Origin: Alphaproteobacteria bacterium
GTDB lineage: Bacteria; Pseudomonadota; Alphaproteobacteria; Bin95
DNA length: 64,000 nucleotides
Reading direction: 5' to 3'
Assembly: GCA_963665325.3 (NCBI GenBank)
Contig: CAXXWS020000002.1
Location: forward strand, 448,001 to 512,000
Both the position numbers and the translations under genes were made by a program. The notes under the pieces are model-generated. The model was not told where the DNA came from. It worked only from the letters and a program-made list of their open reading frames with translations, and did not search any database. Positions 15,133 through 36,812 of this stretch are shown here, piece after piece. Positions within the stretch are counted from its first letter, which is position 1; each line of letters starts with the position of its first letter.

Positions 15133-15234
15133 GTGCGTCTTGCCGGCTATGCCCCGAAGGAACGCCGCAGCCCGTTGCCGCCCCGCGCGCGCGGGGCCAG
15201 AGCGTCCCGTCTTTCGAAACCCGAAGGACGGGAC

Positions 15235-16824
15235 ATGACAACGGACGGCTCCCCGATCGCGCGCTTCGCGATCTATGCGCGCTATTCTTCCCCCTTGCAG
15301 GAGATGACCTCGATCGCAGGCCAGCTCCGCCTCTGCCGCGACCGCGTCGCCACTCTGGGCGGCGTGATCGCGGACGAATACACCGACCCGGAGCTTTCGG
15401 GCACGGCCATGCAGTTGCGCCCGGGGCTCCGGCAGCTGATCGAGGACGCCCGCGCGAGACGGTTCGACGCCGTCTACGTCGAAGCTCTCGACCGGCTCGC
15501 CAGGAGCCAGGCCGACATGACTTGGCTCTATCGGGAGCTCCGGTTCCTGGGGATCGACCTGTACAGCCTGGAGGACGGGCAGGTCGACGCCCTGCATGCC
15601 GGCATCAAGGCAATAGTGAGCGAGATGTTCATCGAAAATATCGGCAACAAGACGCGCCGCGGCCAGATCGAGGCCGTGCATGATCTTCGCCTCATCGGGT
15701 CCAGCGTCTATGGCTACAGGATCGCCAACCGCATCGACGAGAGCGGGAAGCCTGTCCGCGGGCTGCGGACCGTCGAACCCGGGGAAGCGGAGGTCGTGCG
15801 GCGCATCTACCGGCTCTATCTGGACGGCATGAGCCCCACCCAGATCGTCCGCCTGCTCGACCGGGAAGACGTGCCCGGCCCGGACGGGGAACCCTGGACG
15901 GTCCGCACCGTGCGCGGCACCAGCCAGAACGGCATCCTGCGCAACGAGATCTATTGCGGGCGGCTGATATACGGGCGCACCCGCAGCCGGCGCCATCCGG
16001 ACACCGGGCGGCGCCATTTCGATGCCGTCCCCCGCGAGCAATGGACCATTACCGAGGCGCCGGAGCTGCGCATCGTCGACGAGGAGACCTTTCAGGCCGT
16101 CCAGGACGAGGTGCAGCGCCGCCGCCGCCGCCACCACGCCGTGGTGACGCCGCAGCGCAAGGCGGCCTATCCGCTGACCGCCAGGGTCCGCTGCGGCCTT
16201 TGCGGCTCGCACATGATCATTGCGGACAGGAACACCTATCGCTGCGTGACCCGCCGGCGCGACCCGGAGAGCTGCAACAACGGCCGCGGCATCCTGCTGG
16301 AGGACCTGGAGGATAGTGCCGCCCGGCAGCTCTTCGGCTGGCTGCTGTCCCGCGACCGCGACTGGCAGGACATGTTCGCGGCCGCCGGGCGCGAGAACGC
16401 CGGGCGCCGCCGCATCCTCCAGGAGCGGGCCGGGGACGCCACCGACGGGATCGGCCGCCTGCTCGCCGTGATCGAAAGCGGCATCCCCTCGACCAGCATC
16501 GGCGACCGGGTTCTCGAGCTTGAGCGCGCCCGCAACGAAGCGTTAGCAGAACTGGAGCGAATGCCGGAACCGCCGCCGCCCGCCAGTTTCGACGTCAGGG
16601 CGTTCATGCGCGGGCGCGTCGCCGAGTTCCGGCGCGCCGTCGCCGGTAGCGCGCGGACCGACCGGCGCGAGCAGGTGCTGCTCGTCCTCCGCGACCTGAT
16701 CGCCCATATCGAGGTGCGCCCGTCCGACGGCCCCGAACGGGTCGAGGTGGAGACGGCCCCCGACATCCCGGCGATCGTCGAGATGATTTCGCGCCATGCC
16801 GCCGCCGGCGAACGCGGCGCATGA
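15235..16824 (+). CDS. Large serine recombinase
   Basis: YARYSS catalytic serine, LDRLAR, recombinase domain (YGY...ILRNEIY.G), zinc ribbon CGLCG and a coiled coil. Confidence 0.92.
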   Translation: MTTDGSPIARFAIYARYSSPLQEMTSIAGQLRLCRDRVATLGGVIADEYTDPELSGTAMQLRPGLRQLIEDARARRFDAVYVEALDRLARSQADMTWLYRELRFLGIDLYSLEDGQVDALHAGIKAIVSEMFIENIGNKTRRGQIEAVHDLRLIGSSVYGYRIANRIDESGKPVRGLRTVEPGEAEVVRRIYRLYLDGMSPTQIVRLLDREDVPGPDGEPWTVRTVRGTSQNGILRNEIYCGRLIYGRTRSRRHPDTGRRHFDAVPREQWTITEAPELRIVDEETFQAVQDEVQRRRRRHHAVVTPQRKAAYPLTARVRCGLCGSHMIIADRNTYRCVTRRRDPESCNNGRGILLEDLEDSAARQLFGWLLSRDRDWQDMFAAAGRENAGRRRILQERAGDATDGIGRLLAVIESGIPSTSIGDRVLELERARNEALAELERMPEPPPPASFDVRAFMRGRVAEFRRAVAGSARTDRREQVLLVLRDLIAHIEVRPSDGPERVEVETAPDIPAIVEMISRHAAAGERGA

Positions 16825-16938
16825 AACCCGCAAGTGTGAGGAAAGCCTGACCCCTGAACCCGAGGGTGCGGTCAAGCCGCGCCCCCTGTCTGCCGGCCCG
16901 GCCGGCCCTGTCACGACAACCCCAGGAGGAACGCTCCC

Positions 16939-17307
16939 ATGTCCAACGTCATCCCGATCGAGCCATACCTGTGGGACCAGGACGCGTCCGAATATCTGTA
17001 TCCGGACGAGGACTTCCACGAATACGACTACGAGCCGCTGCCCGAGCCGGTGCCGGTCTACGAGCCGCGCCCGAAGACCTACGACCTCCAGAAGCTCTCC
17101 GAGCTCACCGCAAAGCTCGGGCGGGAGTCCGGCTTCAATCTCGGCATCGACGAGACCGCGGTCGAGGCCGCCTTCCACTTCGCGAAGGAGCAGGCCGGGC
17201 GCATGGAGGTCCCGCTGGAGCAGGCGCTGGAGATCGCGGGCTGGGCCATTCTCAACTACGAGCGCGGGCGCCGCGACCCGGAACTCTACAGGATCCGGCC
17301 GTTCTGA
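16939..17307 (+). CDS. Acidic hypothetical protein
   Basis: AGGAGG RBS; high-GC3 codon usage. Confidence 0.75.
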   Translation: MSNVIPIEPYLWDQDASEYLYPDEDFHEYDYEPLPEPVPVYEPRPKTYDLQKLSELTAKLGRESGFNLGIDETAVEAAFHFAKEQAGRMEVPLEQALEIAGWAILNYERGRRDPELYRIRPF

Positions 17308-17418
17308 AGCGCCGCCAACCATAACCTCCTCGCCGCGCCGCCGGTCGCTGCCCCGGCAACCCCGGAGCCGGAAATGTCCGGGGCGCCTCGGGAGGGCCAG
17401 GAAGAGGGAGGCGGCGCC

Positions 17419-18447
17419 ATGCGTGGCGATCCAGCGCCAACACACAGCCTGAAGGACCTGAACGCCTTGCTGGCGGCCGATATCGAGGCCGTTTGCCGAC
17501 ATTACCTTCCGAACGGGAAGCGCAACGGCAACTACTGGCAGGTGGGCAGCACCGCCGGCGAGGAGGGCGCCTCGCTGCGCATCAACCTGTCCGGGCGCTG
17601 GCGTGGACGCTGGAGGGACTGGGCCAACCCGAAGGACCGGGGCAGCCCCCTCGACCTGATCCGCGCCGTGCGCAACTACGCCAGCATCGGGGAAGCGGCC
17701 GCCGAGGTGCGCCGCTACCTGGCGCTTCCGGCATATGAGCGGCCCCGGTGCGGTCCCCGCCGCCCGGACGGCGCGCCGGAGGCGCAGACGGGCCTGGAAC
17801 GGGTGCTCGAGGGCGCGAAGACGATCGGGGCAGACGACCCGGCCGGGCGTTATCTCGCCTCGCGCGGCCTCGCCATAGAGGACGCCCGCGCCGCCGGGCT
17901 GCGCTTCCGCCCCGACACCTGGGTCCAGGTGGACGGCAAGAAATGCGAGCTGCCGGCCCTGCTCGCGCCGATCCGCGCGCTCGACGGCACGCTGGAGGGC
18001 CTGCAGCGGATATTCCTCGCCCCGGACGGAAGCAAGGCCTCGATCCCGGACCCGAAACGGACCAGCGGGCGGCTCTTCTCCGGCGCCGTGCGCTGGCCCA
18101 TGTCCGGGGCGAGCCGCATGGTGCTGACCGAGGGGATCGAGGACGCGCTCGCCGTCATAAGGGCACTCGGCGCCGGCCGGCCTCACGATATCGCCGTCGC
18201 GGCCGCGATCTCCGCCGGGCGCGTCCACCGCGTCGGCCTCTCCCCGGACATCCGGCGCGTGACGCTCGTCCAGGACCGCGACATGGCGGGCGAACAGGCA
18301 TGGGTCGCACTCTGCCGCGAGCATGGAGGCTCCGCCCTGCTGCTCGACCGGATCATTCCCGGCAAGAAGGACGCCAATGACGAGCTCCTCGCGCTCGGCC
18401 CCGCCGGGTTCCTGGCGAGGCTCGCGGCCCAGGGACTGTCCGGCTGA
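17419..18447 (+). CDS. Toprim-domain (primase-like) protein, copy 1
   Basis: AVCRHYLP.G...W..G...GE.G.SL; YLASRGL; TEGIEDAL; D.D.AG; KDAND. Confidence 0.85.
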   Translation: MRGDPAPTHSLKDLNALLAADIEAVCRHYLPNGKRNGNYWQVGSTAGEEGASLRINLSGRWRGRWRDWANPKDRGSPLDLIRAVRNYASIGEAAAEVRRYLALPAYERPRCGPRRPDGAPEAQTGLERVLEGAKTIGADDPAGRYLASRGLAIEDARAAGLRFRPDTWVQVDGKKCELPALLAPIRALDGTLEGLQRIFLAPDGSKASIPDPKRTSGRLFSGAVRWPMSGASRMVLTEGIEDALAVIRALGAGRPHDIAVAAAISAGRVHRVGLSPDIRRVTLVQDRDMAGEQAWVALCREHGGSALLLDRIIPGKKDANDELLALGPAGFLARLAAQGLSG

Positions 18448-18618
18448 CACGGGGGCTGCAGGGCCACCGCCGCGCACGCCGCAGCCCTCCCGCCGGCGCC
18501 TCCGTTCCCGGCCGGCCGCCGGAAGTTGGGGAAGGGGTTGCCGAGGTATCGATGCGGGCGCGGCTTGCTTCCGGCCCGTTCCGATCCCATACTCCCCAAC
18601 GGACAGGAGACGAGGCAC

Positions 18619-19161
18619 ATGACCTCTCCCGAAACCCCTTCCCCGGAACCGCAGCGCAGCATGTTCGGCATCGGTGACGGCAGCTGGAAGGCGATGATCC
18701 CGGCCGCCACCGTGCTCACCTTTTTCGTGCTCTTTCTGGTCGGGATACTCGGCTGGTTCGACAGTCGCATCGACGGGGTCGAAATGCGCCTGACCGCCCA
18801 GATCGTCGAGGTGAAGGCGGATCTGACGAACCGGATTGATGAGGTTAAGGCAGACCTCAGAGCAACCGAGACTCGCCTGTCCGACCGGATCGACCGGGTC
18901 GAGACTCGCCTGTCGGACCGGATCGACCGGGTAGAGACCGATCTCGGCACCCGCATCGACGGGGTGAAGGCGGAACTGGCTGCGAGCGAGGCGCGCCGCG
19001 CGGCCGTGGATGCGCAGCTTTCCGCCGATATCGAGCAGGTCTCCGCCGGTGTCGCGGAGAACCGGGCCGCGCATCGCGAGCTCGCCGGCTTCGTGCGCGC
19101 CAGCCGCTCGCAGGAGCCGCCTCCGGCGAGCGACCGGCCGGGTCCCGCACCGCCGCAGTAG
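18619..19161 (+). CDS. Membrane-anchored protein with an 11-aa coiled-coil repeat
   Basis: One TM helix, then RID.VE(T/K)RL repeats; AGGAG RBS; candidate promoter TTGCTT-17-CATACT upstream. Confidence 0.8.
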   Translation: MTSPETPSPEPQRSMFGIGDGSWKAMIPAATVLTFFVLFLVGILGWFDSRIDGVEMRLTAQIVEVKADLTNRIDEVKADLRATETRLSDRIDRVETRLSDRIDRVETDLGTRIDGVKAELAASEARRAAVDAQLSADIEQVSAGVAENRAAHRELAGFVRASRSQEPPPASDRPGPAPPQ

Positions 19162-19287
19162 CCGCACGCACCCCATAGCCGGCGCCGTTTTCGCCCCTTC
19201 CCGGCCCAAGGTCGGGAAGGGGTTTTTCGTGGCGATCCGCGCGGGCCGTCCTGTTCGCGCGTCCCTCCACGACAGGAGACGCTGCCC

Positions 19288-20580
19288 ATGCCCGGCGCGC
19301 CGGCTTCCGTCCCTCGCGACACGCATCAACCCGCCGAAGCGGCGGACTGCAACTGCAACAGCGGCAAGTCCGCGGACGCTACGCCGCCCGTCCGTTCATA
19401 TTCCTGGCACGCGCGGCGCCGGCTCGCCACGCGCGGCCTCTGCCTGAACTGCGGCCAGGTGCCCCCGGCGGACGGCGCGAAATACTGCTCCGGCTGCATC
19501 GAGCGCCGCCGCGCCAGCGACCGCAAGGCCGCCCGCAAACGCCGCCTGCTGCGCCGTAACCGCGGCCTCTGCGCAGAGTGCGGCGCCGTGGCCGAAAAGC
19601 CCCGCCAGCGGCTCTGCGAGGCCTGCAACGACAAACACCGGGCCGTGAGCCGCCGGCGCCAGCAAGACCGAAAGGAAGAACGGAAGCGGGCAGGCCTGTG
19701 CGTACAGTGCGGAGGCAGGGCGCCGGCCGAAGGCAATGCGAGCTGCGACGACTGCCTCGCCCAGCGCCGGCTGGCATACCGCGTCCGCATCGACCGCCGC
19801 CGGCGCCAGGGCGACCGTTCGCTCTGCATCGAGTGCGGCAAGGCGCCCCCGGCTCCCGGCCGCCGCCGCTGCCCGGACTGCCAGCCGCTCACCGCCGGGC
19901 GCGACAGGGACGCCGCCAGACACCGCCGGGAGGCCCGCCGCTCTGTCGGCCTCTGCACAGTCTGCGGGCAGCATTCCGCCGTCCGCGGACGCACGGCCTG
20001 CGAGGCCTGCCTCGCGGGCTGGCTTGACCAGTACAACCGCAAGACCCTGGCCCGCGTCGCGCAAGGCCTTTGCATCCGGTGCGGGAAAGAGCCCCCGGCA
20101 ACCGGGTTCACCGCGTGCGAGCCCTGCCGGGACAGCCACCGCGCCGCCAGTCTTGCGAAGTGGCGCCGGCGCACTGCCGAACGCCGCGCCATGCAGCGCT
20201 GCATACGCTGCGGCGAGGATCTCGCCGACGGGGAGCAGGAGGTCTGCGAGCCCTGCCGCGACACCCAGCGCCTGAGCGCGCGCCGGCGTGCCGACCGCCG
20301 CAAGGCGCTGGGCGTCTGCGTTCGCTGCGGGCGGCGCCCCGCCGGGCGAGGAGCGCGCGACTGCGGCCCCTGCCGCGACCGCCAGCGCGCCTACGCCTGG
20401 CGCGGCATGCCCGACCTGCCGCCCCGCTACACCGTGATCGAGATCGCCACCGGCACCGATCACGGCACCTGGGAAACCGTCCAGGAGGTCGCGGGCGCGC
20501 TCGCCTATGCGAAGCTGACGCTCGACGACGTCGAGATCCTGACCGACGCCGCGCCCATGGCCGCCTTCAGGAGCTGGTGA
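19288..20580 (+). CDS. Tandem C4 zinc-finger repeat protein A (8 x CxxC-x11-CxxC plus basic helix)
   Basis: Eight GLC..CG..P...G...C..C repeats; AGGAG RBS; 59-aa C-terminal tail shared with its paralogue. Confidence 0.8.
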   Translation: MPGAPASVPRDTHQPAEAADCNCNSGKSADATPPVRSYSWHARRRLATRGLCLNCGQVPPADGAKYCSGCIERRRASDRKAARKRRLLRRNRGLCAECGAVAEKPRQRLCEACNDKHRAVSRRRQQDRKEERKRAGLCVQCGGRAPAEGNASCDDCLAQRRLAYRVRIDRRRRQGDRSLCIECGKAPPAPGRRRCPDCQPLTAGRDRDAARHRREARRSVGLCTVCGQHSAVRGRTACEACLAGWLDQYNRKTLARVAQGLCIRCGKEPPATGFTACEPCRDSHRAASLAKWRRRTAERRAMQRCIRCGEDLADGEQEVCEPCRDTQRLSARRRADRRKALGVCVRCGRRPAGRGARDCGPCRDRQRAYAWRGMPDLPPRYTVIEIATGTDHGTWETVQEVAGALAYAKLTLDDVEILTDAAPMAAFRSW

Positions 20581-20715
20581 CGCCGCCTCGCATCCCCTTC
20601 CCGGTCCCCGGCAGCCGCAACGCCGCCAAGGTCGGGAAGGGGTTGTTCGTGCGATCCGCGCGGGTCCGCCATTGGCAACCGCCCGCGCCCGTTTCCCGAT
20701 CAGGAGATATCGCAC

Positions 20716-21027
20716 ATGCCCGGCATGCCCGTTTCCGTCCTTCGCCCCGATGCGAACACCTTTCTGACGCACGTCTTCGGCCGCGGCCTCCAGGACAAGA
20801 CCTATGTGGTCGAGCGCTACCGCACCGGCATCGACGGCGAGATCCGGCGCCTGCCGGGCGGCAGGGGCCATCCGCTCACCCTCTCGCTGGCGACCGTCCG
20901 GGAGCTGCGCCCGGCGCGCAACGAGATCCTGATCTGCCGGTGCGAGAAAAAGCCGGACTCCGGCATCCAGTACTGGGGGGTGTGGGCGACCGGGCTCTTC
21001 GCGGAGGGCAGGCGCAAGGGGCGCTGA
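20716..21027 (+). CDS. Hypothetical protein (103 aa)
   Basis: AGGAG RBS; follows motif copy 3. Confidence 0.75.
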   Translation: MPGMPVSVLRPDANTFLTHVFGRGLQDKTYVVERYRTGIDGEIRRLPGGRGHPLTLSLATVRELRPARNEILICRCEKKPDSGIQYWGVWATGLFAEGRRKGR

Positions 21028-21137
21028 GGCGTTCACGCTCCGGCGCCTCGGTTCTCCCCTTCCCGGTCAGCAAGGTCGGGAAGGGGTTTTTCCTTCCGAA
21101 CCCGCCGTCGCTCGCTTTCCAGTCGTCAGGATCCGCC

Positions 21138-22322
21138 ATGGCACCGAGCCGCACCACCCAGCTGCGCCACGCCCGCCGCGAGGCAGGCCTTTGCCAGGAA
21201 TGCGGACAGGTCCCCCCGGAGGGCAACTCCACGCACTGCGCCGCTTGCAGCCAGCGCCGGCGCGAAAACAGGCGCCGGTCCCAGCAAAAGCGCCGCATGC
21301 GTCTTCGCGAACGCCTGCTCTGCCTGGACTGTGCCAAAGCCGCGCCCGAGCCTGGCCGCGCCCGTTGCTCTTCCTGCGCCGAAACGCACCGCACCGCCAC
21401 CAGGCACACCAACCGGCTCCTCCGCGAAACCCGGCTCAAGGCCGGCCTCTGCCGCCAATGCGGCCAGAAGCCTGCGGCGCCCGGCAATGCCACCTGCGAC
21501 GACTGCCTTGCCGCGCGCCGCCAAGCCTACCGCGCCAGCACCGCCAGGAAACGCCGCCGCACTGACCCCTCTGTCTGCCTTGACTGCGGCAACAACTCTG
21601 CGGCCCCCGGCAAACCCCGTTGCCCCGCATGTGTTCGTCTCGCCGCCAGGGCCCTCCGCGACCGGCTCCGCGCGGCCGGCATCTGCACAACGTGTACGGC
21701 ACGCCCCGTCACCGACGGTCACACCACCTGCGGTCACTGCCGGGACGCCAATCTCGCCTGGTTTCACCGCGAACAGGGCCGCCGCAAATCCGAAGGCCTC
21801 TGCCGCAAGTGCGGGCAGCAACCTCCCCTTGCGGGATTCACGCTCTGCCTGCCATGCCGCGAGAAGAGCCGCTTCGCTGGCCATGCGACCTGGGTCCGGC
21901 AAACGACGGAACGCCTGACATGCGGGTTATGCGTGCGTTGCGGGCAACATCCCGCTGCGGAGGGCGTCCGTGAATGTCCCGCTTGCCGTGAATACTCCCG
22001 CTCACGGGCGCTGGCCTATTACCGCCGAACGTCGTCCGAACGAAAGGCGCTGGGCCTTTGCGTCCGTTGCGGCAGGCGGCCCCCCGAACGCGGCACGCTC
22101 GACTGCGGTCCCTGTGGCGACAAGCAGCGCGCCCGCGAGTATCGCGGCATGCCCGACCTGCCCGACCGGTACACCCTGATCGAGATCGCGACCGGAACCG
22201 ATCACGGCACCTGGGACAACCTCCAGGAAGTCGCGGGCGCGCTGGCCTACGCGAAGCTCACGCTCGACGACGTCGAGATCGTCACCGACGCCGGGCCCAT
22301 GGCCGCCTTCAGGAGCTGGTGA
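21138..22322 (+). CDS. Tandem C4 zinc-finger repeat protein B (8 repeats)
   Basis: Same architecture and near-identical tail as 19288-20580; AGGA RBS. Confidence 0.8.
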   Translation: MAPSRTTQLRHARREAGLCQECGQVPPEGNSTHCAACSQRRRENRRRSQQKRRMRLRERLLCLDCAKAAPEPGRARCSSCAETHRTATRHTNRLLRETRLKAGLCRQCGQKPAAPGNATCDDCLAARRQAYRASTARKRRRTDPSVCLDCGNNSAAPGKPRCPACVRLAARALRDRLRAAGICTTCTARPVTDGHTTCGHCRDANLAWFHREQGRRKSEGLCRKCGQQPPLAGFTLCLPCREKSRFAGHATWVRQTTERLTCGLCVRCGQHPAAEGVRECPACREYSRSRALAYYRRTSSERKALGLCVRCGRRPPERGTLDCGPCGDKQRAREYRGMPDLPDRYTLIEIATGTDHGTWDNLQEVAGALAYAKLTLDDVEIVTDAGPMAAFRSW

Positions 22323-22426
22323 CGCCGGCCCCATCCCCTTCCCGCCCCGGCAGCCGCATGGCCGCCAAAGGTCGGGAAGGGGCTTGTCGAGGGTGACTGC
22401 AAACAGCCACCCGGAGGACATATCCG

Positions 22427-22693
22427 ATGCCCGAGCCCGCCCCCTCGATGCGCACGTTCCGGATCGACGGAATCGGCCATGCCGGCGAGACCCTCGACAC
22501 CTGGTTCGTCGAGGCCCCCTGTTCCCGGCAGGCGCTGTCCCGCCTCTCCGAGAGCCTGGCGGACCGCGCCGAAACCGCCGGCTGGCGCCTCTACACGCTC
22601 CAGTACTGCGCCGATATCCGCATCGACGAAGTCGACGCCGCGCTGGCGTCCCCCGGCGCTGCCGCCTATATTCCGCAACAGGGAGTCGCCTGA
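22427..22693 (+). CDS. Hypothetical protein (88 aa)
   Basis: GGAGG RBS; follows motif copy 5. Confidence 0.72.
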   Translation: MPEPAPSMRTFRIDGIGHAGETLDTWFVEAPCSRQALSRLSESLADRAETAGWRLYTLQYCADIRIDEVDAALASPGAAAYIPQQGVA

Positions 22694-22696
22694 TCC

Positions 22697-23065
22697 ATGG
22701 CCATGACCGCATTCGAAACCGCCACGCTGGCATTCCAGAAGGCGACCGTCGCTTTCCAGGAATCCACCATGCGGTTCCAGGAATCCACTATCGGATTCCA
22801 GAACGCTTCCCTCGAGCTGCAACGCGACGGTCTCTATCTCCAGGAGGCCGCCATCTACGTCCAGGCCGGCGTCGGCCTTCTTCAGGCTGCCCTGATCGGC
22901 TACGGGCTCTGGATGATGCACCGCGCGTCCACGGACCGGAACCGCCTCATGGACGAAGAACGTGTTCGCGCCGATCGGCGACATGAGGAAGCCATGACCG
23001 CCCTCAAGGAGCTGATCGCGCGCACGGCGTCCCCCTCCTCTCCTCCCGGCGCCAGCGCCGCTTGA
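22697..23065 (+). CDS. Heptad-repeat membrane protein
   Basis: FETATLA/FQKATVA/FQESTMR/FQESTIG/FQNASLE heptads followed by a hydrophobic helix. Confidence 0.7.
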   Translation: MAMTAFETATLAFQKATVAFQESTMRFQESTIGFQNASLELQRDGLYLQEAAIYVQAGVGLLQAALIGYGLWMMHRASTDRNRLMDEERVRADRRHEEAMTALKELIARTASPSSPPGASAA

Positions 23066-23198
23066 CCCGCCGGGCGTTCTTCGCCCCGCATCTCCTTCCC
23101 TTCCTGCCCGTTCCCGGCCGCTGCGGCATTCACGCCGCAAAGGTCGGGGACGGGTTTTTCGGGTGGTGCCAACCAGTTCCACCGAAAGGGCTTGAGCG

Positions 23199-23552
23199 AT
23201 GCAGCACATGAACGAGACCATCCGCAGCGTGCTGGCCGCGCACGGCATCGAGCGAAGATTCGCTGTCCTGCTCGCGGACCACGCAAGCAGCAATTTCAAC
23301 GAGCATTCCTACCTGGTCGAGTGGCCGGGCGAGCTCGGCGGCGCGCTCGTCTACCGGAGCGAGGAGGCCTGGCGAGCCGCCGCGGGCGACGACGCCTCCT
23401 GCTTCGACCTCTGGCCCTGGGCCGTCGAGGAAGTCTGCACCGATTACATGTACGCGGCGATGTACGAGGCCGGAATGTTCGACGAACACGGCGAGGTGGC
23501 GGAGGACTGCCCCCAGCGCGAAGCGGCGATCCAACTCTGCCTGGGCAACTGA
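23199..23552 (+). CDS. Acidic hypothetical protein (117 aa)
   Basis: Follows motif copy 6; rich in Glu, Asp and aromatic residues. Confidence 0.72.
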   Translation: MQHMNETIRSVLAAHGIERRFAVLLADHASSNFNEHSYLVEWPGELGGALVYRSEEAWRAAAGDDASCFDLWPWAVEEVCTDYMYAAMYEAGMFDEHGEVAEDCPQREAAIQLCLGN

Positions 23553-23682
23553 CCGGTCCGGCATTCCGGTCGGCGCTTCCCCATCCCCGGCCTTTGCGGC
23601 ATCGACGCTGCGAAGGTGGGGAAGGGGCTTTTCGCGGTGAGTTCGAGCAACTCGCAATCAACCAGTTGCAGGGAGCAACACC

Positions 23683-24102
23683 ATGAACGGCCTGAACCGC
23701 GTCGACCTGATCGGCAACCTCGGCGGCAACCCCGAGATCCGGACCATGCAGAACAGCAGCGAGGTCGCCAATTTCTCCATCGCCACCAACGAGGTCTACA
23801 AGGACCGCCAGACCGGCGAGTACAAGGAGCTCACCGAGTGGCACCGGATCGTCGTCTACCAGCAGGGTCTCATCGACATGCTGAAGAAGCACGGCGAGAA
23901 GGGCCGCCTGGCGCACATCACCGGCAAGCTGCGCACCCGCAAGTGGACGGACCGCGACGGCAACGACCGCTACTCCACCGAGATCGTGGTCGGCCCCCGC
24001 GGCTGCATCAACTTCCTCGACCCCAAGCGGGACGGGGCGGGGAACGGAAACCGTCCGCCGGCGCCGCCCCCGGAAGCCTATCAGGACGATTTCGCCGCCT
24101 GA
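23683..24102 (+). CDS. ssb: Single-stranded DNA-binding protein
   Basis: NRV.LIGNLG..PE, TEWHRIV, G.LRTRKW.D..G..RYSTEI and an acidic tail (DDF). Confidence 0.95.
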   Translation: MNGLNRVDLIGNLGGNPEIRTMQNSSEVANFSIATNEVYKDRQTGEYKELTEWHRIVVYQQGLIDMLKKHGEKGRLAHITGKLRTRKWTDRDGNDRYSTEIVVGPRGCINFLDPKRDGAGNGNRPPAPPPEAYQDDFAA

Positions 24103-24115
24103 GCGAACGCCCCCC

Positions 24116-24150
24116 AGCCCCGGAACCCGAGGGTTCCGGGGCTTCTTCCT
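24116..24150 (+). terminator. Intrinsic terminator-like hairpin after ssb
   Basis: agccccggaaccc-ga-gggttccggggct followed by a pyrimidine run; similar hairpins close other cassettes at 24675-24700, 27274-27306 and 27941-27970. Confidence 0.7.
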
Positions 24151-24406
24151 TGTACGCTCAGCAACGTCCCGGGGCCCGCCTCGGCGCGTTTTTTCGTTGC
24201 CCCCGTCCGCGGGTCCCCCGCACTTCGGTGACCTCCGTCTTCCCGGGCTGGGCCCGGAAGGGATGGCGGAACGCGGCCGCTCTTTGCTGATCGCCGGAGC
24301 GCCGCCCCGGTCCGGAGAAGGTGGGGAAGGGGTTTTCCGGGCGGCATTGCGGGCCTCGCTCCTGCTTGCCCTCGTGCTACAATCCCCCACAGAAAGGAGC
24401 TGCACC

Positions 24407-24664
24407 ATGACCGCAGCCGATCTCGCCCCCTGGACAACGCCCGCGATCACCATCGCCCTCATCGCCTGGCTCCGCATGGACCTCGGCAAGCGCATCGACC
24501 GTCTCGAGGAGCGAATGGACCGGCGCATCGACGGCATCAACGCGCGTCTCCGTGCCCTGGAAATCGCCGTCGGCGCCATGGCGGCCAAGCTCGACCTGCT
24601 CGAGCGCTACTTCCTGCGGCCGAACGAGCCTCTCGACAAGCCGTCCCCGGAAGCGTCCGAGTAG
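24407..24664 (+). CDS. Small TM plus coiled-coil protein (85 aa)
   Basis: AAAGGAG RBS; TGnTACAAT extended -10-like box upstream. Confidence 0.78.
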   Translation: MTAADLAPWTTPAITIALIAWLRMDLGKRIDRLEERMDRRIDGINARLRALEIAVGAMAAKLDLLERYFLRPNEPLDKPSPEASE

Positions 24665-24945
24665 CTTCCCCCTGACCCCGGCCTCCGCGCCGGGGTTTTT
24701 CCATTCCGACGATCCAGCGCCTCGGGCCCCGCCCCCGGGGCGCTTTTTCGTGCCCCCGTTCCCGGCCTGCCCGTACTGCCGGGCGTCCCGCATGCCGGGC
24801 GCTGGCCGGGAAGCGTTCTGTGCGGCCGGCCGTCGCCCATCAGCCGCCGTCGTGCCGGCCGCGAGGCAAGAAAGGTGGGGAAGGGGTCTGTCGGGCGGTA
24901 TCGCGGCCATCCCGGTCGCGACCGCAGCCCGAAAGGATTTTCGGA

Positions 24946-25122
24946 ATGACCGTTCTGCTGGACCTCGCCTTCGACGCGATCGACGATCGCCACGCCGTCG
25001 CCGAGCTCGGACTCGATGCGCTCCCCCTCCGCGACAGCGTCCTGGAGGACAGCCTGCCCCGCTGGGGAGACCAGGCGACCCTGTTCCCCTGGGAGCCCGA
25101 TACCGCCGGAGACGCCGGCTGA
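24946..25122 (+). CDS. Small acidic protein (58 aa)
   Basis: AAAGGA RBS; follows motif copy 9. Confidence 0.6.
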   Translation: MTVLLDLAFDAIDDRHAVAELGLDALPLRDSVLEDSLPRWGDQATLFPWEPDTAGDAG

Positions 25123-25747
25123 ACCCTGTCGCCCCGATGCCCCCCGGCGTCGGGGCGATCGTTCTGTACCGGCTCACCGCCGCGGCCCCCCGGTCCGTGC
25201 CTATATGCCTGCCGGCAGTCGCTTCGCTCCGGTAGCGGCATCGTGGGCGGGGATGGCCGGTCCGGAGCCGGGCCGCATCGAACCCGCCGTCCGGTCGCAG
25301 GCTCCCTCCCGTCACGTCCGCTGCTGACCGCCCGGTTCCAGACCGGCTGCGGGGACGCCGGGCCGCGACCGCCGCGCCGGGCGGGCTTCGCCCTTCCCCC
25401 CGTCACGCCGCCCGCTTGAGGCCCGGCTTGAATCTGAAATCGACACCCTCGCTGCGCTCGCCCGGCGCAGGCGCCGGATGAGGGCCGCTTCGCGCCCTGG
25501 CGGAGCGTGCTGCGCACGCGGGAGGCCGGTCGTGGCCTTCGGCATGCCGGGGGCGCTGCGCTGTGACCCCCCGGCAGGCCGAAAGCCGTTGGTGGGGGGC
25601 AGGGGCAGCCGGAGGCATGGCGGCATGGGGAGACCTGGAAATGCAACCCGCGACCTCGGGCAGGCCTGGAAAAGGTGGGGAAGGGGTTGTTCGGGTGGAT
25701 TCGCGGCCAATCCGGTCGGCGACGGTGATCCGGAAGGAGGATCGGTC

Positions 25748-26776
25748 ATGGCGGTCATGCATGGAGGCATTTCGCTGCAGGAGCTGGCAGCGCGGCTGGC
25801 GACCGAGATCGAGGCGGTCTGCGCCTACTATCTGCCGAACGGCCGGCGTGACGGCCCGTTCTGGCAGGTGGGCAGCGTCGCGGGCGAGCCCGGCAGCTCG
25901 CTGCGCGTCAATCTGGCGGGCCGGCTGCGCGGGCGCTGGAAGGACTGGGCGAACGGGCGGGATCGCGGCGACGCGCTGGACCTGATCCGCGCGGCCCGGG
26001 ACCTGGCGTCGGTCGGCGAGGCCGCGAAGGAGGCCCGGCGCTTCCTGTCCCTGCCCGATGCCGAGCGCCCGGCTTCGGTCGTGTCCGTTGCGGCATGCCG
26101 GCCGGTGAACCGGGCGGGCCTGGAGCAGGTGCTGGCCCGTTCGCGCGCGATCTGCGCCGACGACCCGGCCGGGCGCTATCTCGCCTCGCGCGGGCTGGCG
26201 GTGGACGACGCGCGGGACGCCGGCCTGCGGTTCCGGCCCGACGCCTGGGTGCAGGTGGACGGGCAGAAGCTGGAACTGCCGGCCCTGCTGGCGCCGATCC
26301 GCGCGCCGGACGGGACGCTGGAGGGCCTGCAGCGCATCTTCCTCGCCCCGGACGGCGGGAAGGCGGCGATCGCGGACCCGAAGCGGACCAGCGGGCGGCT
26401 CCACTCCGGCGCCGTGTGGTGGCCTGCTGCCGACGATGCGCGGCACGTGGTGCTGACCGAGGGCGTGGAGGACGCGCTCGCGGTCCGCCGGGCCCTGGGC
26501 GCGCATGGCCGCCGGCATATCGCCATCGCGGCTGCCGTGTCCGCCGGGCGCATCCCGCAGGTCGCCCTGCCGCCCGGCACGGTGCGGGTCACGCTGGTGC
26601 AGGATCGGGACCGCGCGGGCGAGGAGGCCTGGGCCGCGCTGGTCAACAGGCATGCCGGCCCGGATGTGCTGGTCGGGCGCCTCGTCGCCGGCGCGAAGGA
26701 TGCGAATGACGACCTCCTCCGGCTCGGCCCCGCCGGATATCGCCGGCTGCTGCTCTGCGGGGGCCTGCCGGCCTGA
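25748..26776 (+). CDS. Toprim-domain (primase-like) protein, copy 2
   Basis: Paralogue of 17419-18447 with the same 1029-nt length; AAGGAGG RBS. Confidence 0.85.
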   Translation: MAVMHGGISLQELAARLATEIEAVCAYYLPNGRRDGPFWQVGSVAGEPGSSLRVNLAGRLRGRWKDWANGRDRGDALDLIRAARDLASVGEAAKEARRFLSLPDAERPASVVSVAACRPVNRAGLEQVLARSRAICADDPAGRYLASRGLAVDDARDAGLRFRPDAWVQVDGQKLELPALLAPIRAPDGTLEGLQRIFLAPDGGKAAIADPKRTSGRLHSGAVWWPAADDARHVVLTEGVEDALAVRRALGAHGRRHIAIAAAVSAGRIPQVALPPGTVRVTLVQDRDRAGEEAWAALVNRHAGPDVLVGRLVAGAKDANDDLLRLGPAGYRRLLLCGGLPA

Positions 26777-27008
26777 GCCACGATGCCCGGCGCCATCGGC
26801 GTCGGGCATCTGTTGCGTACCGGTCCGGGGCGCAGTTGGCGCCGGCCCCGCCGCGCCGTGGCGGTGGATGGCCGCGGAACGGGCCTGGAAGGGAATGGCG
26901 GGGCGTTCGGGGGATTTCGGCTGCCCGTACGCGCCGGGGCCGGCCGATGCGGCCGGGAGAAAGGTGGGGAAGGGGCTGTTGGGGTAAATCCCGAACAGGA
27001 GAGAGACG

Positions 27009-27266
27009 ATGAACGGCGACGCATACTGGACCGTGGACATCCTGCTGCCCTACTACACCGGCGGGCAGCGCTGGCGGGTCGTGCATGGCGGCGGGAGCGA
27101 GCAGCTCGCCCGGCGCATGCTGGACGCGGAGCGCCGGAACGGCAACCGCGCGCGCCTGCGCTGCTGGACAGCCGAGGTCGTGGACGCCGATGAGGTGCAA
27201 GACCTCGCCGAAGCGGTCCCCGTTCCTCAGCCTGCCGACCGGCTGGACAACGCGGTCCCCTTCTGA
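27009..27266 (+). CDS. Hypothetical protein (85 aa) ending in an SSB-like acidic tail (DNAVPF)
   Basis: AGGAG RBS; follows motif copy 11. Confidence 0.72.
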   Translation: MNGDAYWTVDILLPYYTGGQRWRVVHGGGSEQLARRMLDAERRNGNRARLRCWTAEVVDADEVQDLAEAVPVPQPADRLDNAVPF

Positions 27267-27599
27267 AGCAGAGAGCCCCGGCGCCTCCGGCGCCGGGGCT
27301 TCTTCTATGTACCGCTCCGGCGGCCTCCTCCCGGGCGGCCGGGAGACCGGCTCCGCTATCCGGAACCCTGGCGGGGCCTCCGCAGGCTCCGGCCCCGCCA
27401 GGAACCCGGAAGACTGCGCCTGGAAGTTCCTCCTGACGGCGACGTCTGGCGCAAGCGCCAGGTCGCTTCGCTCCCGGGCCGGGAAGGAGGAATGCTGTCG
27501 GCCGGCGCTTCGGCGGCGAAATCCAAAAGGTAGGGAAGGGGTTGTTCGGGTGGAATTGCGGTCAATCCCGGCCGCGATCGCGAAGAGATGGAGACAGCG

Positions 27600-27932
27600 A
27601 TGTCGATTCCCGCCAACCGGGCCCTCGTGCCGTTCCGCCCGTTCCTGATCGTCCGCGTGGCCGAGTTCGATGACGAGCCCGCCGAGATCCGCACCGCTGC
27701 CAGCCGCGAGGACTGCGAGCGCGCCCTGTTCGACTGGATCGAGGAGAGCGTCGTCCCCAACGAGATCTCCGGCGGGTCCTTCAATCCCGGTGAGGGCTGT
27801 TACACCTTCGCCGCCAGTGAATATGGCGAGCTTCGCCACCAGCGGACCGAACGCCCGGACGGAGGCTGCCACTTCGGTCCCTGGGCCGAAGAAGCCCGTC
27901 CCGCCGCCGGCAACGACCCGTGGCCGTTCTGA
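27600..27932 (+). CDS. Hypothetical acidic protein ending DPWPF
   Basis: GGAG RBS; follows motif copy 12; terminator downstream. Confidence 0.7.
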   Translation: MSIPANRALVPFRPFLIVRVAEFDDEPAEIRTAASREDCERALFDWIEESVVPNEISGGSFNPGEGCYTFAASEYGELRHQRTERPDGGCHFGPWAEEARPAAGNDPWPF

Positions 27933-28149
27933 TCCCGATCGCCCGGCGCCGAAAGGCGTCGGGCTTTCTTCATGTTGCGGTCGCCGGGACGGCTCGCCCT
28001 CAACGCTGCGTTGCGCCCCGTCCGGCTCCCGCATTACCTGCCGGAGCCCGGGGTTTCCTGCCGATTGTCCGGCCCGCACCCCGCTTCACCCATCGGGGCC
28101 CCTTGCGCCGATCCGCGCCGCTGCCCTATCCTTCGCTCATGAGGTATGC

Positions 28150-28330
28150 CCTGGAGAATGTCGAGAAAATAGGTTGGCACACCTGTGCACCCAGGTGCAA
28201 TTCAAACTATCAACAATTTCAACGACTTATCCGGTCGATGAAATTCGGAAGGCGCGGCACACGGAACCCGGAGGACCAGCCGCCCGGTGGATGTATCCGG
28301 GGAGCACCGATCGCATGCTCCGATCGGCCA
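28150..28330. promoter_or_regulatory. Candidate oriT / relaxase promoter region
   Basis: AT-rich non-coding island between the cassette array and the relaxase genes; short inverted repeats cacctg-N6-caggtg (28180-28197) and ccgatcg...cgatcgg; nic site not identified. Confidence 0.4.
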
Positions 28331-28370
28331 TTCCTGCGCTTGCCTGTTACGTGAACACTGGGCCCTGACG

Positions 28371-29627
28371 ATGGTAGCGAGGATCACCAAACTGACGAAA
28401 CCGGACCTCTATGCCGGACGCAGGGCGCCCTGGACCGGCAAATGGCGCAACCCGTCAGGCCTGCTGCATCTCGCGGACGGCGGCGCCGTTTCCGACAGGG
28501 ACTTCCTTTCCCTGTGGAGGGGGTTCGCGCCCGGAGACGGCTGGCCCCTGTCGCGCCGCGCCCTCAGCCGGACCCACATGCCCGGCTTCGACATCGTGCT
28601 CTCGCCCGACAAGTCGATCTCGGCGCTCTGGGCCATCTCTCCGGAGTTCGACCGCAAGCGCATCGAGCGCACGGTCATGGACGCGGCCGGGATCGCGATC
28701 ACCCGCACGGTCTTCCGGCATTGCGCTGTCACCCGGGCCGGTACGTCCGGCAGGAATTTTCAGGTTGAGACCGGCGACATCCTGGTCGCGATCTTCCCGT
28801 TCCACATCTCCCGCGAACTCGATCCGCAACTGGACGTCAGCTGCGCCATCTTCAATTTGGTGCAGACGCACCGGGACCTGAGGTTCCGGACCCTGCACGC
28901 CTATCCCCTGTATTCCTGGCAGAAGGCCATCGGCGCCACTTTCCGGAGCCGTTTGGCGTATCGGTTGCGCAGCCGCCTCAGCATCGGGATGGAACGGCAT
29001 GGCGAGCAAGGCGAATACACCCGCATCCGGTGCATGGACCCCGGCCTCGAAGAGTTCTGGAGCAAACGGAAATCAAAGTTGTTGGCCAGTCGGGCAAGGA
29101 AGACAATGCCCGACCCGACATCCCTCCACGGCGCCCAATCATCGAGTGCGCCTCTGCGGATCAAACGCACGGCGATCGACGCTGACACGGCCAGGTTCAG
29201 GGATGAAGCAGCCGCATTCGTCGATCCCGATGCCCTGCATACACGGATCGTCCGGTCCGCATCCAATGACGTGACTGAACGCCAGCACGACAGCGTCCGC
29301 CGGGAGATCGACGACATTCCCCGCACGCTCGCCGCGTCGGACCTGGTCTTCAACACGGCCGACATCGTCGCCCGGGTGGAGAACGCCGCCGGCGGCCTGT
29401 TCGACGACGACGCCATGGACGGGTGGCTCGAATTCGCCCTGGCCGCCGACAACCTGCTCCCGCTGGACCATGAAGACCCGAACCCCGACGCCGTCGCCGG
29501 CATGGCCCACAAGCGCCTGTTCACGACCCGTGACATCCTGGACGCCAACCCGGATCACAAGCGGCTTTCCGGCCTCAGAGTTGCGCCTCTACAGCCGGAA
29601 GCACCCACGGAGCCTTCGCGGTGGTAG
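28371..29627 (+). CDS. Degenerate MOBF (TrwC-like) relaxase domain lacking catalytic residues
   Basis: Colinear with the N-terminus of 29621-35974 (PGFDI..S.DKSISALWA), but has no YY pairs and HISRELDPQLDVS in place of H.SR..DPQLHVH. Confidence 0.82.
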   Translation: MVARITKLTKPDLYAGRRAPWTGKWRNPSGLLHLADGGAVSDRDFLSLWRGFAPGDGWPLSRRALSRTHMPGFDIVLSPDKSISALWAISPEFDRKRIERTVMDAAGIAITRTVFRHCAVTRAGTSGRNFQVETGDILVAIFPFHISRELDPQLDVSCAIFNLVQTHRDLRFRTLHAYPLYSWQKAIGATFRSRLAYRLRSRLSIGMERHGEQGEYTRIRCMDPGLEEFWSKRKSKLLASRARKTMPDPTSLHGAQSSSAPLRIKRTAIDADTARFRDEAAAFVDPDALHTRIVRSASNDVTERQHDSVRREIDDIPRTLAASDLVFNTADIVARVENAAGGLFDDDAMDGWLEFALAADNLLPLDHEDPNPDAVAGMAHKRLFTTRDILDANPDHKRLSGLRVAPLQPEAPTEPSRW

Positions 29628-32600
29628 CGACGATCGCCAAGATGGCCGTGCCGTCCTACTACATCGAGAGCCAGGCGGCGCATGAGGGCTACTACACGGG
29701 CGGCGGCAAGGAGCGCCCGGGCGAGTGGTACAACCCGACCGGCCTCTTCCGTCTGAAGGATGGCGGCCTCGTCTGGGAGAAGAAGTTCTACGCCCTCTGT
29801 GGCGGCCGGTCGCCGGAACTCGACGGCACCGACCTCGTGCGCAATGCCGGCTCGGAGAAACGGTCGCCCGGCTTCGACATCACCTTCTCGGCCGACAAGT
29901 CGATATCCGCGCTCTGGGCGGTCTCGCCGAGGGCGGAAGACCGCGAGAAGATCGAGCGCGCCGTGATCGACGCCGCGCGCTGCGCTCTCGACGAGACCGT
30001 GTTCAGGCATTGCGCGACCACGCGTGTCGGCAAGTCAGGCGTGGATCTCCGTATCGAGACCGGCGACATGCTGGCGGCGATCTTCCTCCACCGCACGTCG
30101 CGCGAGGGCGATCCGCAGCTGCACGTGCATTCGACGATCTTCAATGTCGTCAAGACGCACTCTGACGGCAAATACCGCGCCCTGCACGGCTATCCGCTCT
30201 ATTCCTGGAAGAAGGCCGCAGGCGCGGCGTTCCGGGGCCATCTCGCCCACATCATGCAGGAACGCCTCGGCATCGCCATGGAGCGGCACGGGCCCGAGGG
30301 CCAGTACAGCCGCATCCGCGAGATGGACGGCGATCTGGAGCAGTTGTGGAGCAAGCGGCGCGCCCAGCTCGTTGCGACCGTTGCCGAACATCTGGGCGAG
30401 GAAGCGCTCGCCAACCCGGCCCAGATGGCCGCCGCGACGCTTGCAACCCGTTCGCGAAAGCCCGAGGGCGGTCCCTCGACGGAGGAAGACATCGAGCGCT
30501 TCCTGGAGGAGGCCGCTGAACTCGTCGATGTCGCGGAACTCCGGGACCGCATCCGCAATGCCGGGATCGAGGAGCTCACCCACGAGCGCATCGCCGAAAT
30601 CCACGACGAGATCGTCGCGATCCCGGAGAAGCTCGCGCGGATGGAGGCCGTCTTCAATGTCCCGAACATCATGGAGAAGCTCGAGAACGCACTTGCCGGC
30701 GCCGTCGACCGCGAGGCCATGCAGCGCTGGCGCGAGGTTGCGCTCGGGAATGCCGAGCTGGTCTCCCTCGAATATCCGGAGCCCGCCATCGAGGCCCAGG
30801 CCGGCATGGCGCACAAGCAGATCTTCACCACGAAGGAAACGCTCCGCGCCGAGCGCACCCTGCGCCACATCTCCGGCCTCTCGGTTTCGGACCGCACCCA
30901 CGCCGCCGATCCGGACAAGGTCGCGCGGCTCCTCGAGGACCTCGGCAACCGGGGCAAGCGCTTCAGCGCCGAGCAACGCAGGGCCATCCAGTACGCCGCG
31001 GCGGACTCCGGGCGGATCGCCCTCATCGAGGGGGCGGCCGGCGCCGGCAAGTCCCACGTGCTGGGGCCGCTCGCGGACCTCTGGCGCGCCGAAGGCTACA
31101 AGGTGCGCGCACTCGCGGTCGCCTGGTCGGTCGCACGCGAGCTCGCCAGCGACATCGACGCGCCGCCGAGCGCCGTCCATCCCTTCCTGAAGGACGTCCA
31201 CAAGGGCGCCGTCAATGTCGGCCCCGACACCGTCCTGGTCGTGGACGAAGCCGGCATGCTGTCGACGCGCCAGACGCTGCAGCTCGCCAGGCTGAGCGAG
31301 GAGACCGGCTGCAAGCTCCTGCTGGTCGGCGACACGCAGCAGCAGCAGCCGATCGAAGCCGGGCCGGGCATGCGCATCGTCAAACAGCGCGTGAAGGGCG
31401 TGCGCATCGACCGCATCCGCCGACAGCTCCCGACGGTCGAGGACTATCTGCGCGAGATCGTGGGCCTGCCGGCTGAAGAAGCCATTGCGACGGCGGCGCC
31501 GATGACCCGCGAGGAACGCGACGCCGCCAGCAAGCGCTACACCGCCATGCGCCGCGAACGCCGGGCGGCCGGCGAGGAGCCCCTCTCCATCAAGCGCCCC
31601 TGGCAGCTCGGCGTATCGGCGCTGCTGCGCACGGGCGCCATGCACCAGGCGTTCATCGAGATCCACAAGCGCGGCCGCTTCACGCTGGCCGAAGGCAAGG
31701 AAGACGCGCTGCTCCGGCTCGTCGCCCACTGGTCCGCCTGGATGGCGGAGAACCCGGAGGGCGAGGCCGTCGTCATGGCGCGCACCCGCGCCGACGTGCG
31801 CGCGCTGAACGCCCTGCTTCGCGCCCGGCACCACGGCGCGAACGCACCGCCCGACTACAATCCCGCGACGGACTCCGCCGTCATCCGGATCCACCGCTTC
31901 CGCGACCGGGGCAAGGCCGTGGAGGACGATTTAGAGGTCCGCATCGGCGACCGCCTCCGGATCGGTGCCACCGTCTCCCGGCTCGGCCTCTACAACCGCG
32001 ACGCGGTCACCGTCACCGGGCTCGAAAAGCAGCAGGCCGAGGACGGCAGCACGCAGGTCCGCATCACGGCCCGAACGCAGGACAATCGAACGGTCCGCTT
32101 CGAGCCCGGCGACATCCGGAACTGGACCGGCGAGATCGCCATTGACTACGCCTATGCGGCGACCTGCACGACCGCCCAGGGCCTCACCATCGACGCCGGC
32201 TTCCTTTTGCTGGACGAAGGCATGGCGCGCGAGACCACCTATCCGGCCGCCACCCGGCACACGCGCCACCTGCAGGTCGTCGCCGACCGCCTGCCGGTCG
32301 CGATCGCGATCGCCGGCGCCACGCCCGACGGCGAGCCCGGCCATGAGGTCTCCGACGAGGAGATCGTCGCCACGCTCGGCCGGCTCTGCGGGCGCTCGCA
32401 GCCCAAGCAGGCCGCGATCGACTACATCCTGGCCGCAAACCAGGCGGACATGCCGCTCCAGGGCGAGCTCGAGATCGGGCGCGAGCCGGTCCCGGCCGCC
32501 GAAGCCGCCAACGACGCCGTCCAGCCCGGCACGGCCGGCGCCGGGCCGCGCTCTCCGGGCGAGCCTCCCGGCGCGGCCGTGCGCCGGCATGCCGACCGCG

Positions 32601-36427: not shown

Positions 36428-36812
36428 TGCCTGCCTCCGGCGTGGCCCGACGAGGGCATGGACTCACGGCACCATCCTCCTCAGCTTGAGCGCAAGCGCA
36501 TTCATGGTCCAGCGCCGAATGCTGGCCCCGATCGGCGGATCGACTTTCCTTCGCGGTCTGTGCCAGGCTGCTGCTGCGCGGTGCTGAACCTCCAATGGGC
36601 GCCGCGTAGCGCCCTGGCGGAGGTCAACGACAATGCTCCGGGCGCCGCCAGGGCGCTCCTCATGAAAGCCGGGTGACGACACCCCGATCGGGAGGAGTCT
36701 TCCAGCCGCCCGATCCCCGGAAACTGGAGGCGCATCCAGGCCTGTGTCAAACTGCGATCCCGTGCCGGAGCGGCGCGGTTCGACCGTTATCGACCAGTAT
36801 GGGAACGCCGCC

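Follow-up and report, generated by a model that had tools for sequence, protein, structure and literature searches.

What kind of protein is specified by a gene that repeats a cysteine-rich unit eight times and then closes with an acidic tail, and what use might a mobile element have for two such genes in tandem? The question is raised by the genes ZnA and ZnB, which lie in a 64,000-nucleotide stretch of the genome of an alphaproteobacterium (assembly GCA_963665325.3, contig CAXXWS020000002.1, positions 448,001 to 512,000 of the forward strand); we refer to this whole stretch as the window and use its own coordinates throughout. The genetic background of the two genes, the architecture of their products, the homologues found elsewhere and the order of the genes around them identify ZnA and ZnB as members of an undescribed protein family on conjugative islands of the Alphaproteobacteria. 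The coordinates of the features discussed here are collected in Table 1.

Both open reading frames (ORFs) have the attributes of genuine genes. An AGGAGA ribosome-binding site lies 7 nucleotides ahead of the ATG of ZnA, and the GC content of in-frame third positions (0.88 in ZnA and 0.80 in ZnB) is like that of the neighboring genes. Contigs from four public runs match parts of 20999-22259, the ZnB region, with 0-1 differences, and contigs from the same runs bear diverged versions of ZnA; in P0004, an orthologue of ZnA, the N-terminal extension is kept in frame. A consensus scan of 16800-29600 detected no sigma-70-like promoters. The two products are 51% identical to each other (200/394 positions by BLASTP, E 1e-117), and the spacing CxxC-x11-CxxC is common to all 16 of their units, which recur with a period of 36-43 residues and are separated by linkers of 17-24 residues. 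An earlier note on this DNA, which had been made from its letters alone, described two paralogous genes of eight C4 (four-cysteine) units each, and its coordinates and spacing agree with ours.

The four cysteines are the only residues that are invariant across the 16 units. ZnA has 34 cysteines and ZnB has 33, of which just 2 and 1, respectively, fall outside the motifs; unit 7 of ZnB has an extra cysteine three residues upstream, and the unit proper (CVRC...CPAC) has the x11 spacing as well. When the units are compared in order from 1 to 8, ZnA and ZnB are 47, 30, 60, 44, 28, 51, 28 and 67% identical, and because the likeness follows this diagonal we regard the two genes as collinear copies of one whole gene. 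The net charge is distributed unevenly along both proteins, with +44 to +48 in the array of units and -6 to -7 in the last 55 residues, for which the isoelectric point is about 4.1.

The family to which these proteins belong is not named by any source that we consulted. A word-indexed search retrieved 36 homologues, all of them without a name. A profile of six tails matched 203 clusters at E<=1e-3 (120 at E<=1e-10) among 1.84 billion representative sequences; in a search of sampled genomes, it matched both ZnA and ZnB and also seven genomes other than that of the window. The tail, a domain of about 55-60 residues, is a constant C-terminal module, as the earlier note had held, and is separable from the array. 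Within this family, ZnA and ZnB form a divergent subgroup with a tail of the type RGMPDLP..DHGTW, as opposed to the common type RGIPVWDP..REHGPFD. Counts of units for 35 proteins, ZnA and ZnB included, ranged from 4 to 8 with a mode of 5 (4 units, n=5; 5 units, n=20; 6 units, n=7; 8 units, n=3). The spacer between the cysteine pairs of a unit is x9 in 64 cases, x10 in 57 and x11 in 172. Among the listed representatives P0040-P0188 (n=149), 47 had at least one full C4 unit and 102 had none; 86 of these 102 were shorter than 150 residues, and the ones sampled resemble fragments. A distant relative of 623 residues, P0039, combines two kinds of repeats (CxxC...GLCxxH and CxxC-x11-CxxC) with N- and C-terminal regions that are unrelated to the family and have no Pfam match, and the zinc module may be reused in other architectures.

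Searches of the curated libraries account for none of this. Neither ZnA nor ZnB nor the small protein encoded between them had a match in NCBIfam, PHROGs or PADLOC; all of the Pfam zinc-ribbon matches of ZnA and ZnB were below threshold, and the 16 units, taken singly, touched 22 Pfam zinc models without coming near the cut-off of any. In the ESM Atlas, the nearest clusters either had no name or consisted of generic phage double zinc ribbons. A plasmid collection had no match to the 10-kb stretch of DNA in question, and tblastn searches of it with ZnB, P0006 and the small protein likewise found none. Profile matches in the PDB between designed WD40 or Kelch repeats and the tail or the small protein were rejected as artefacts, each the sum of many insignificant stretches. 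A phrase search of the literature for tandem or repeated zinc ribbons found no paper. In the accessible text of a survey of polyvalent proteins of phages and conjugative elements (PMC5512222), such arrays are not mentioned and the terms "YAcAr", "ZnR", "Zn-ribbon" and "NADAR" are absent, while "zinc", in the 8 of its 9 places that were inspected, refers to zincin-type proteases or stands in a reference title. The statement of the earlier note that it recognized no named family is thus borne out by the libraries, structures and literature that were searched.

The position of the family on its islands is fixed. In the resident genome of the window (5.58 Mb in 5 contigs) the tail occurs nine times. 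Each of the seven copies outside the window has a homologue of the small gene directly upstream, and in six of these seven an ssb gene follows within about 1.5 kb and is itself followed by a gene for a YAcAr protein. The modular order, on conjugative islands, is small gene of about 100 codons, zinc-module gene, ssb and SLOG/YAcAr gene. In the window itself the small gene lies 110 nucleotides upstream of ZnB and ssb 1.36 kb downstream of it. In an even sample of the class, 401 genomes in all, the tail was present in 8 (or in 7 of 400 if the genome of the window is set aside), with 1-9 matches in each, and among 15 loci from the seven other genomes the small gene was upstream in 14 and ssb downstream in 10.

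Several observations on these islands can be recorded here. The resident genome harbors many related conjugative islands, distributed over contigs C1, C3, C4 and C5, and more than 20 ssb-like matches. Three pairs of zinc-module genes in it are nearly identical (C3:3480 and C5:5634; C1:611811 and C3:1058319; C4:75768 and C4:944381). In a locus of another genome (L045, G191:C3:1465000-1476000), the zinc-module gene is apparently split by an insertion of ~3.7 kb with a serine-recombinase-like piece, such that the 5' part of the gene adjoins the small gene and the tail is found 3.7 kb further on.

Structure prediction suggests how the units might be built. The AlphaFold2 model of ZnB, computed from 23 aligned sequences, had a mean predicted local distance difference test score (pLDDT) of 88.2 and a predicted template-modelling score (pTM) of 0.40, meaning that the modules would be placed with confidence and the overall shape would not be fixed. 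In every unit of this model a helix of 17-24 residues begins at the second cysteine pair. The tail is predicted as strand-strand-helix-strand-helix in the whole model, and the same order was obtained when the tail was folded alone from 42 sequences (pLDDT 91.6, pTM 0.69). Foldseek found no match for the whole ZnB model in the PDB at E<=1e-3, and VIA-align gave nothing above background either (best Z 4.2 with the whole model, 3.9 with the tail alone). The designation of the tail as an "effector" in the earlier note finds no counterpart in these results, as neither fold nor sequence match points to an activity.

We consider that there is about an even chance that ZnA and ZnB are nucleic-acid coats or chaperones that work with SSB in the establishment of the element in a new host, with binding through a ladder of arginines and an acidic tail that serves for docking or self-masking. 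Each module would hold one zinc ion between its two CxxC pairs, of which the first forms a knuckle and the second stands at the N-terminal end of the helix. For its grip on nucleic acid the basic array would rely chiefly on the backbone or on molecular shape, with no base code, and its target would be the single-stranded or freshly replicated DNA of the element in the new host, alongside SSB. The acidic tail might dock a partner, for which the small upstream protein would be the first candidate, or might mask the array of its own protein. The reality of the genes, their architecture, the family, the gene order and the homogenization of the tails as DNA are shown by the data, whereas we infer that the proteins bind zinc and nucleic acid, when they act and what the tail docks; judged from its sequence, with the charge of the array and its arginine ladder, the nucleic-acid binding that the earlier note had envisaged is plausible.

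The earlier note had gone further and likened the arrays to poly-zinc-finger or transcription activator-like effector (TALE) arrays, as modular nucleic-acid readers with different specificities. Spelled out for DNA, each module would recognize a few bases and each paralogue would have its own targets, through which island or host genes might be regulated. The comparison of ZnA with ZnB lends itself to such an idea, since about half of the array residues differ between them, yet the 32 cysteines of each are kept, and units 2, 5 and 7 have diverged strongly (28-30% identity) in spite of the collinearity of the units. It is also true for this pair, as had been claimed, that helix residues differ between repeats and between paralogues. 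The wider family does not bear this out. Among 19 orthologues of the five-unit subfamily, mean column entropy was lowest in the helices (1.21 bits), followed by the tail (1.33) and the loops (1.48), and because the helices vary less than the loops and about as much as the tail, they are not a hypervariable reading surface. The arginine ladder is conserved over 171 distinct x11 units (consensus GLCxRCGxxPPxPGRxxCExCxEKRRAADRARYARRRAAG), with arginine at helix positions 24 (71%), 28 (81%), 30 (64%) and 35 (56%). The linkers of the family, at 16-50 residues, would allow the modules no fixed register.

A potential target for such readers was sought in the DNA around the genes. The intergenic spaces of the gene array between 18522 and 27551 contain a motif in twelve copies (repeat families D3 and D6), which consists of AAGGTSGGGAAGGGG with a T-rich run after it. 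Several of them are preceded by the complementary sequence CCCCTTCCCGG, and two are perfect terminator-like hairpins. The presence of the motif around the zinc-module genes would accord with a role in recognition, but the 10 exact matches of its core, AGGT[CGA]GGGAAGGGG, in the 5.58-Mb genome all belong to this one element (19209-27528), and none of the seven other zinc-module copies in the same genome is surrounded by a comparable repeat array. We have rejected the motif as a target of the family because it is confined to one element. With the entropy of the helices, the arginine ladder and the variable linkers, this makes it quite improbable that ZnA and ZnB are base-specific readers with different specificities. 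A single stem sequence thus recurs at many of the gene boundaries.

The 3' ends of ZnA and ZnB have probably had a history different from that of their arrays. In 60-nucleotide windows, DNA identity was 0.38-0.77 across the aligned arrays and 0.88-0.95 from 20405/22147 to about 20585/22327; the window that begins directly after the stop codons had an identity of 0.85, and the next ones 0.62 and 0.35, so that the raised similarity extends about 60 nucleotides beyond the stop codon. A separate search for repeats paired 20299-20585 with 22041-22327 at 85% (D2). The two genes share the codon at 40 of the 48 residues that their tails have in common; the corresponding counts are 73 of 124 for units 1-7 and 14 of 24 for unit 8. 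The excess in the tail over units 1-7 places the likeness at the level of DNA and not of protein alone. The two tails have thus been homogenized as DNA, and the near identity through the stop codon that the earlier note had remarked upon is confirmed. Protein selection alone would not hold synonymous sites and an untranslated hairpin in common, and the near-identical tails and the ~60 nucleotides after them are therefore best explained by recent gene conversion or recombination between the tandem 3' ends, and not by any special function of that stretch of DNA.

A constant C-terminal module raises the further alternative that ZnA and ZnB are transferred together with the DNA, the tail being a signal for the coupling protein and the basic array entering the recipient through type IV secretion. 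Type IV substrates have their signals at the C-terminus, and among the matches listed the tail of non-fragments usually reaches the C-terminus or stops a few residues short of it; in P0037 the tail is joined to an unrelated RepC N-terminal domain. The known signals are, in contrast, mostly unstructured and basic or hydrophobic, whereas the tail is predicted to be a folded acidic domain, and P0037 is a single sequence that may be a recombination chimera. Other apparent fusions of the tail, in which the N-terminal part is a piece of an integrase (P0047), an insertion sequence (IS) transposase (P0053), the C-terminus of a strawberry-notch protein (P0100) or a piece like orf20716 (P0046), were rejected as decayed or chimeric ORF calls, and no longer fused forms were found at 691-2000 residues, which is weak evidence. 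Transfer of the protein along with the DNA appears highly improbable to us.

Table 1. Features in and around the zinc-module gene array, in coordinates of the window. The profile that gave the E values of the two tail domains was built in part from these same two tails.
Feature	Position	Strand	Remarks
Large serine recombinase gene	15133-16824	+	
DUF7146/Toprim gene (first)	17374-18447	+	
Gene for coiled-coil membrane protein	18526-19161	+	
Motif copy upstream of ZnA	19193..19232	+	CCCCTTCCCGG..CGGGAAGGGG and T run; terminator-like hairpin, 14 pairs
ZnA	19288..20580	+	430 aa; 8 CxxC-x11-CxxC units with Arg helix, then C-terminal tail
ZnA tail domain	20401..20580	+	RGMPDLP...FRSW, acidic; tail-profile match E 2.8e-35
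Motif copy after ZnA	20587..20652	+	Inside the raised ZnA/ZnB similarity past the stop codon
Small conserved gene (P0003)	20716..21027	+	103 aa; between ZnA and ZnB
Motif copy between small gene and ZnB	21056..21096	+	Terminator-like hairpin, 13 pairs
ZnB	21138..22322	+	394 aa; 8 units, then tail
ZnB tail domain	22143..22322	+	Tail-profile match E 4.9e-35
Motif copy after ZnB	22329..22392	+	Homologous to the copy after ZnA
Three small ORFs	between ZnB and ssb	+	
ssb	23683..24102	+	Pfam SSB E 4.7e-28
DUF7146/Toprim gene (second)	25328-26776	+	
Stand-alone TrwC-domain gene	28287-29627	+	
TrwC relaxase-helicase gene	29534-35974	+	2146 aa
YAcAr and NADAR protein gene	36666-42107	+	1813 aa

The preferred reading, that of a coat or chaperone acting with SSB, also draws on where the genes stand in relation to the origin of transfer (oriT). 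In the F paradigm, the leading region consists of the genes that run towards oriT from its far side. Directly before the relaxase genes of the window, in a segment (28100-29627) that also includes the stand-alone TrwC gene, the DNA becomes AT-rich (GC 0.52) and contains the inverted repeat AATTTCAACGAC/GTCGATGAAATT at 28215-28245. We regard this dip as a candidate oriT, and the zinc-module gene array, with all of its genes on the + strand, is transcribed towards it. This layout would fit a putative leading region. Plasmid leading regions often hold SSB genes, and SSB and anti-defence families are found there on the T-strand, according to the accessible text of PMC11541004. With ssb, the Toprim genes and the relaxase genes downstream in the same orientation, the setting looks like a leading or establishment region, in line with the entry into a recipient that the earlier note had suggested; expression of the zinc-module genes upon entry into the recipient can be surmised from their position only.

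The same surroundings might also suit an anti-defence effector, which would counter a host defence on entry by sequestering guide or signal nucleic acid, or would offer its tail as a decoy to a defence protein that binds DNA. NADAR domains reverse ADP-ribosylation of DNA, and for this reason the giant YAcAr and NADAR protein encoded at 36666-42107 may be a polyvalent anti-defence protein; its gene, the Toprim genes and ssb accompany the zinc-module genes. The patchy, multi-copy distribution of the family among the sampled genomes and the fast divergence of ZnA from ZnB would likewise be in keeping with such a role, as would the richness of leading regions in anti-defence genes that is described in the accessible text of PMC11541004. 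Against it, the proteins have no likeness to families in PHROGs or PADLOC or to solved structures, and their strict core position beside ssb suggests the housekeeping of an island and not a variable accessory gene. An anti-defence function is for these reasons unlikely in our estimation.

Other features of the neighborhood deserve brief mention. The DUF7146/Toprim paralogues at 17374-18447 and 25328-26776 are about 63% identical and flank the array (DNA repeats D1, D4 and D19). The protein encoded at 18526-19161 is membrane-anchored and has 11-residue repeats (RIDxVExRL...), and a shorter relative of it is encoded after ssb at 24407-24664. The stand-alone TrwC gene lies directly ahead of that for the 2146-residue TrwC protein, which places two relaxase domains in tandem, and the YAcAr and NADAR protein ends in ~300 residues that share about 40% identity with the C-terminal end of this TrwC protein.

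A coat or chaperone that acts with SSB has several points against it. P0004, the orthologue of ZnA mentioned above, has lost one unit and one cysteine, from which it follows that individual modules can decay. ZnA is without a small gene of its own upstream. On one island of the resident genome the genes for TraG_N, TraD and TraI have the block downstream of them in convergent orientation, an arrangement that does not fit a simple F-like map; the block in the window is a putative leading region. Finally, zinc binding and nucleic-acid binding are both predicted from sequence, and the match of the units to the ribosomal protein eL37, which is discussed below, is marginal and may reflect their composition in cysteine and arginine.

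The small protein deserves attention as a companion of the zinc-module proteins. It has 116 homologues of ~100 residues, many at 75-90% identity and none in Pfam, and a profile search of the PDB gave no real relative. Its invariant residues include H19, D27, R34, R65, E70 and Q85, and with invariant histidine, aspartate, glutamate and arginine it could be a small enzyme; it could also be the partner of the tail. One may imagine, tentatively and with more doubt than confidence, that the small protein, the zinc-module protein and SSB make up an undescribed DNA-handling machine of these islands, in which the string of modules would wrap the incoming strand and the tail would recruit the possibly enzymatic small protein, so that the DNA is protected or primed. 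The tandem copies ZnA and ZnB would then be two coats of different nucleic-acid preference that share one partner.

The establishment of conjugative single-stranded DNA is known mainly from enterobacterial plasmids, through SSB, PsiB, ArdA and similar proteins. The family described here is in no curated library, and its place is constantly beside ssb, on islands that bring up to nine copies of it into a single genome. If its members do bind incoming DNA, they would represent a new establishment factor and, among bacterial nucleic-acid binders, a new type built of zinc modules, and the small conserved gene ahead of them would be an accompanying second novelty. The tandem pair with its homogenized tail might be viewed as a natural experiment, in which the docking end has been kept the same and the arrays have been allowed to differ.

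How do these proteins compare with known systems? A profile of the 16 units, searched against all PDB sequences, had its best match in the zinc ribbon of eL37 (E 3.6e-4, 23.5 bits), which also filled the top 19 rows of the result. In this RNA-binding (rRNA) module (PF01907) the cysteines are spaced CxxC-x11-CxxC as in ZnA and ZnB, and a basic stretch comes after them, but it occurs as a single module in a ribosomal protein, whereas ZnA and ZnB are strings of eight. The Pfam model PF01907 touched only one of the 16 units, in a match (E 0.037) that fell far short of its cut-off, and we make no claim of common descent. The double zinc ribbon DZR_2 (PF18912) is alike in its generic paired CxxC motifs; it matched ZnA at 18.4 bits (E 0.002) and ZnB at 10.4 bits, both short of its cut-off of 27 bits, and a precomputed match to it exists for 5 of the 36 homologues. 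The helix, the tail and the gene context of the family all lie outside what DZR_2 describes. Arrays of eukaryotic C2H2 zinc fingers and of TALE repeats resemble the family in being tandem strings of small helix-bearing modules. The family differs from them in its C4 ligands, its variable linkers and the lack of both hypervariable positions and a cognate repeated target.

The zinc ribbons at the C-terminus of TopA are all-beta and have longer spacers; in the modules of ZnA and ZnB the second cysteine pair is predicted to cap a long helix. The 27 PDB sequences that the profile of the units matched at E<=1 include no topoisomerase, and the 22 Pfam families touched by single units include no topoisomerase zinc-finger model. 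Nonetheless, in E. coli TopA several C4 zinc domains in a row bind single-stranded DNA, as is reported in the accessible part of PMC4678816, and it is these C-terminal ribbons that provide the nearest functional analogy for a string of zinc modules that would grip single-stranded DNA.

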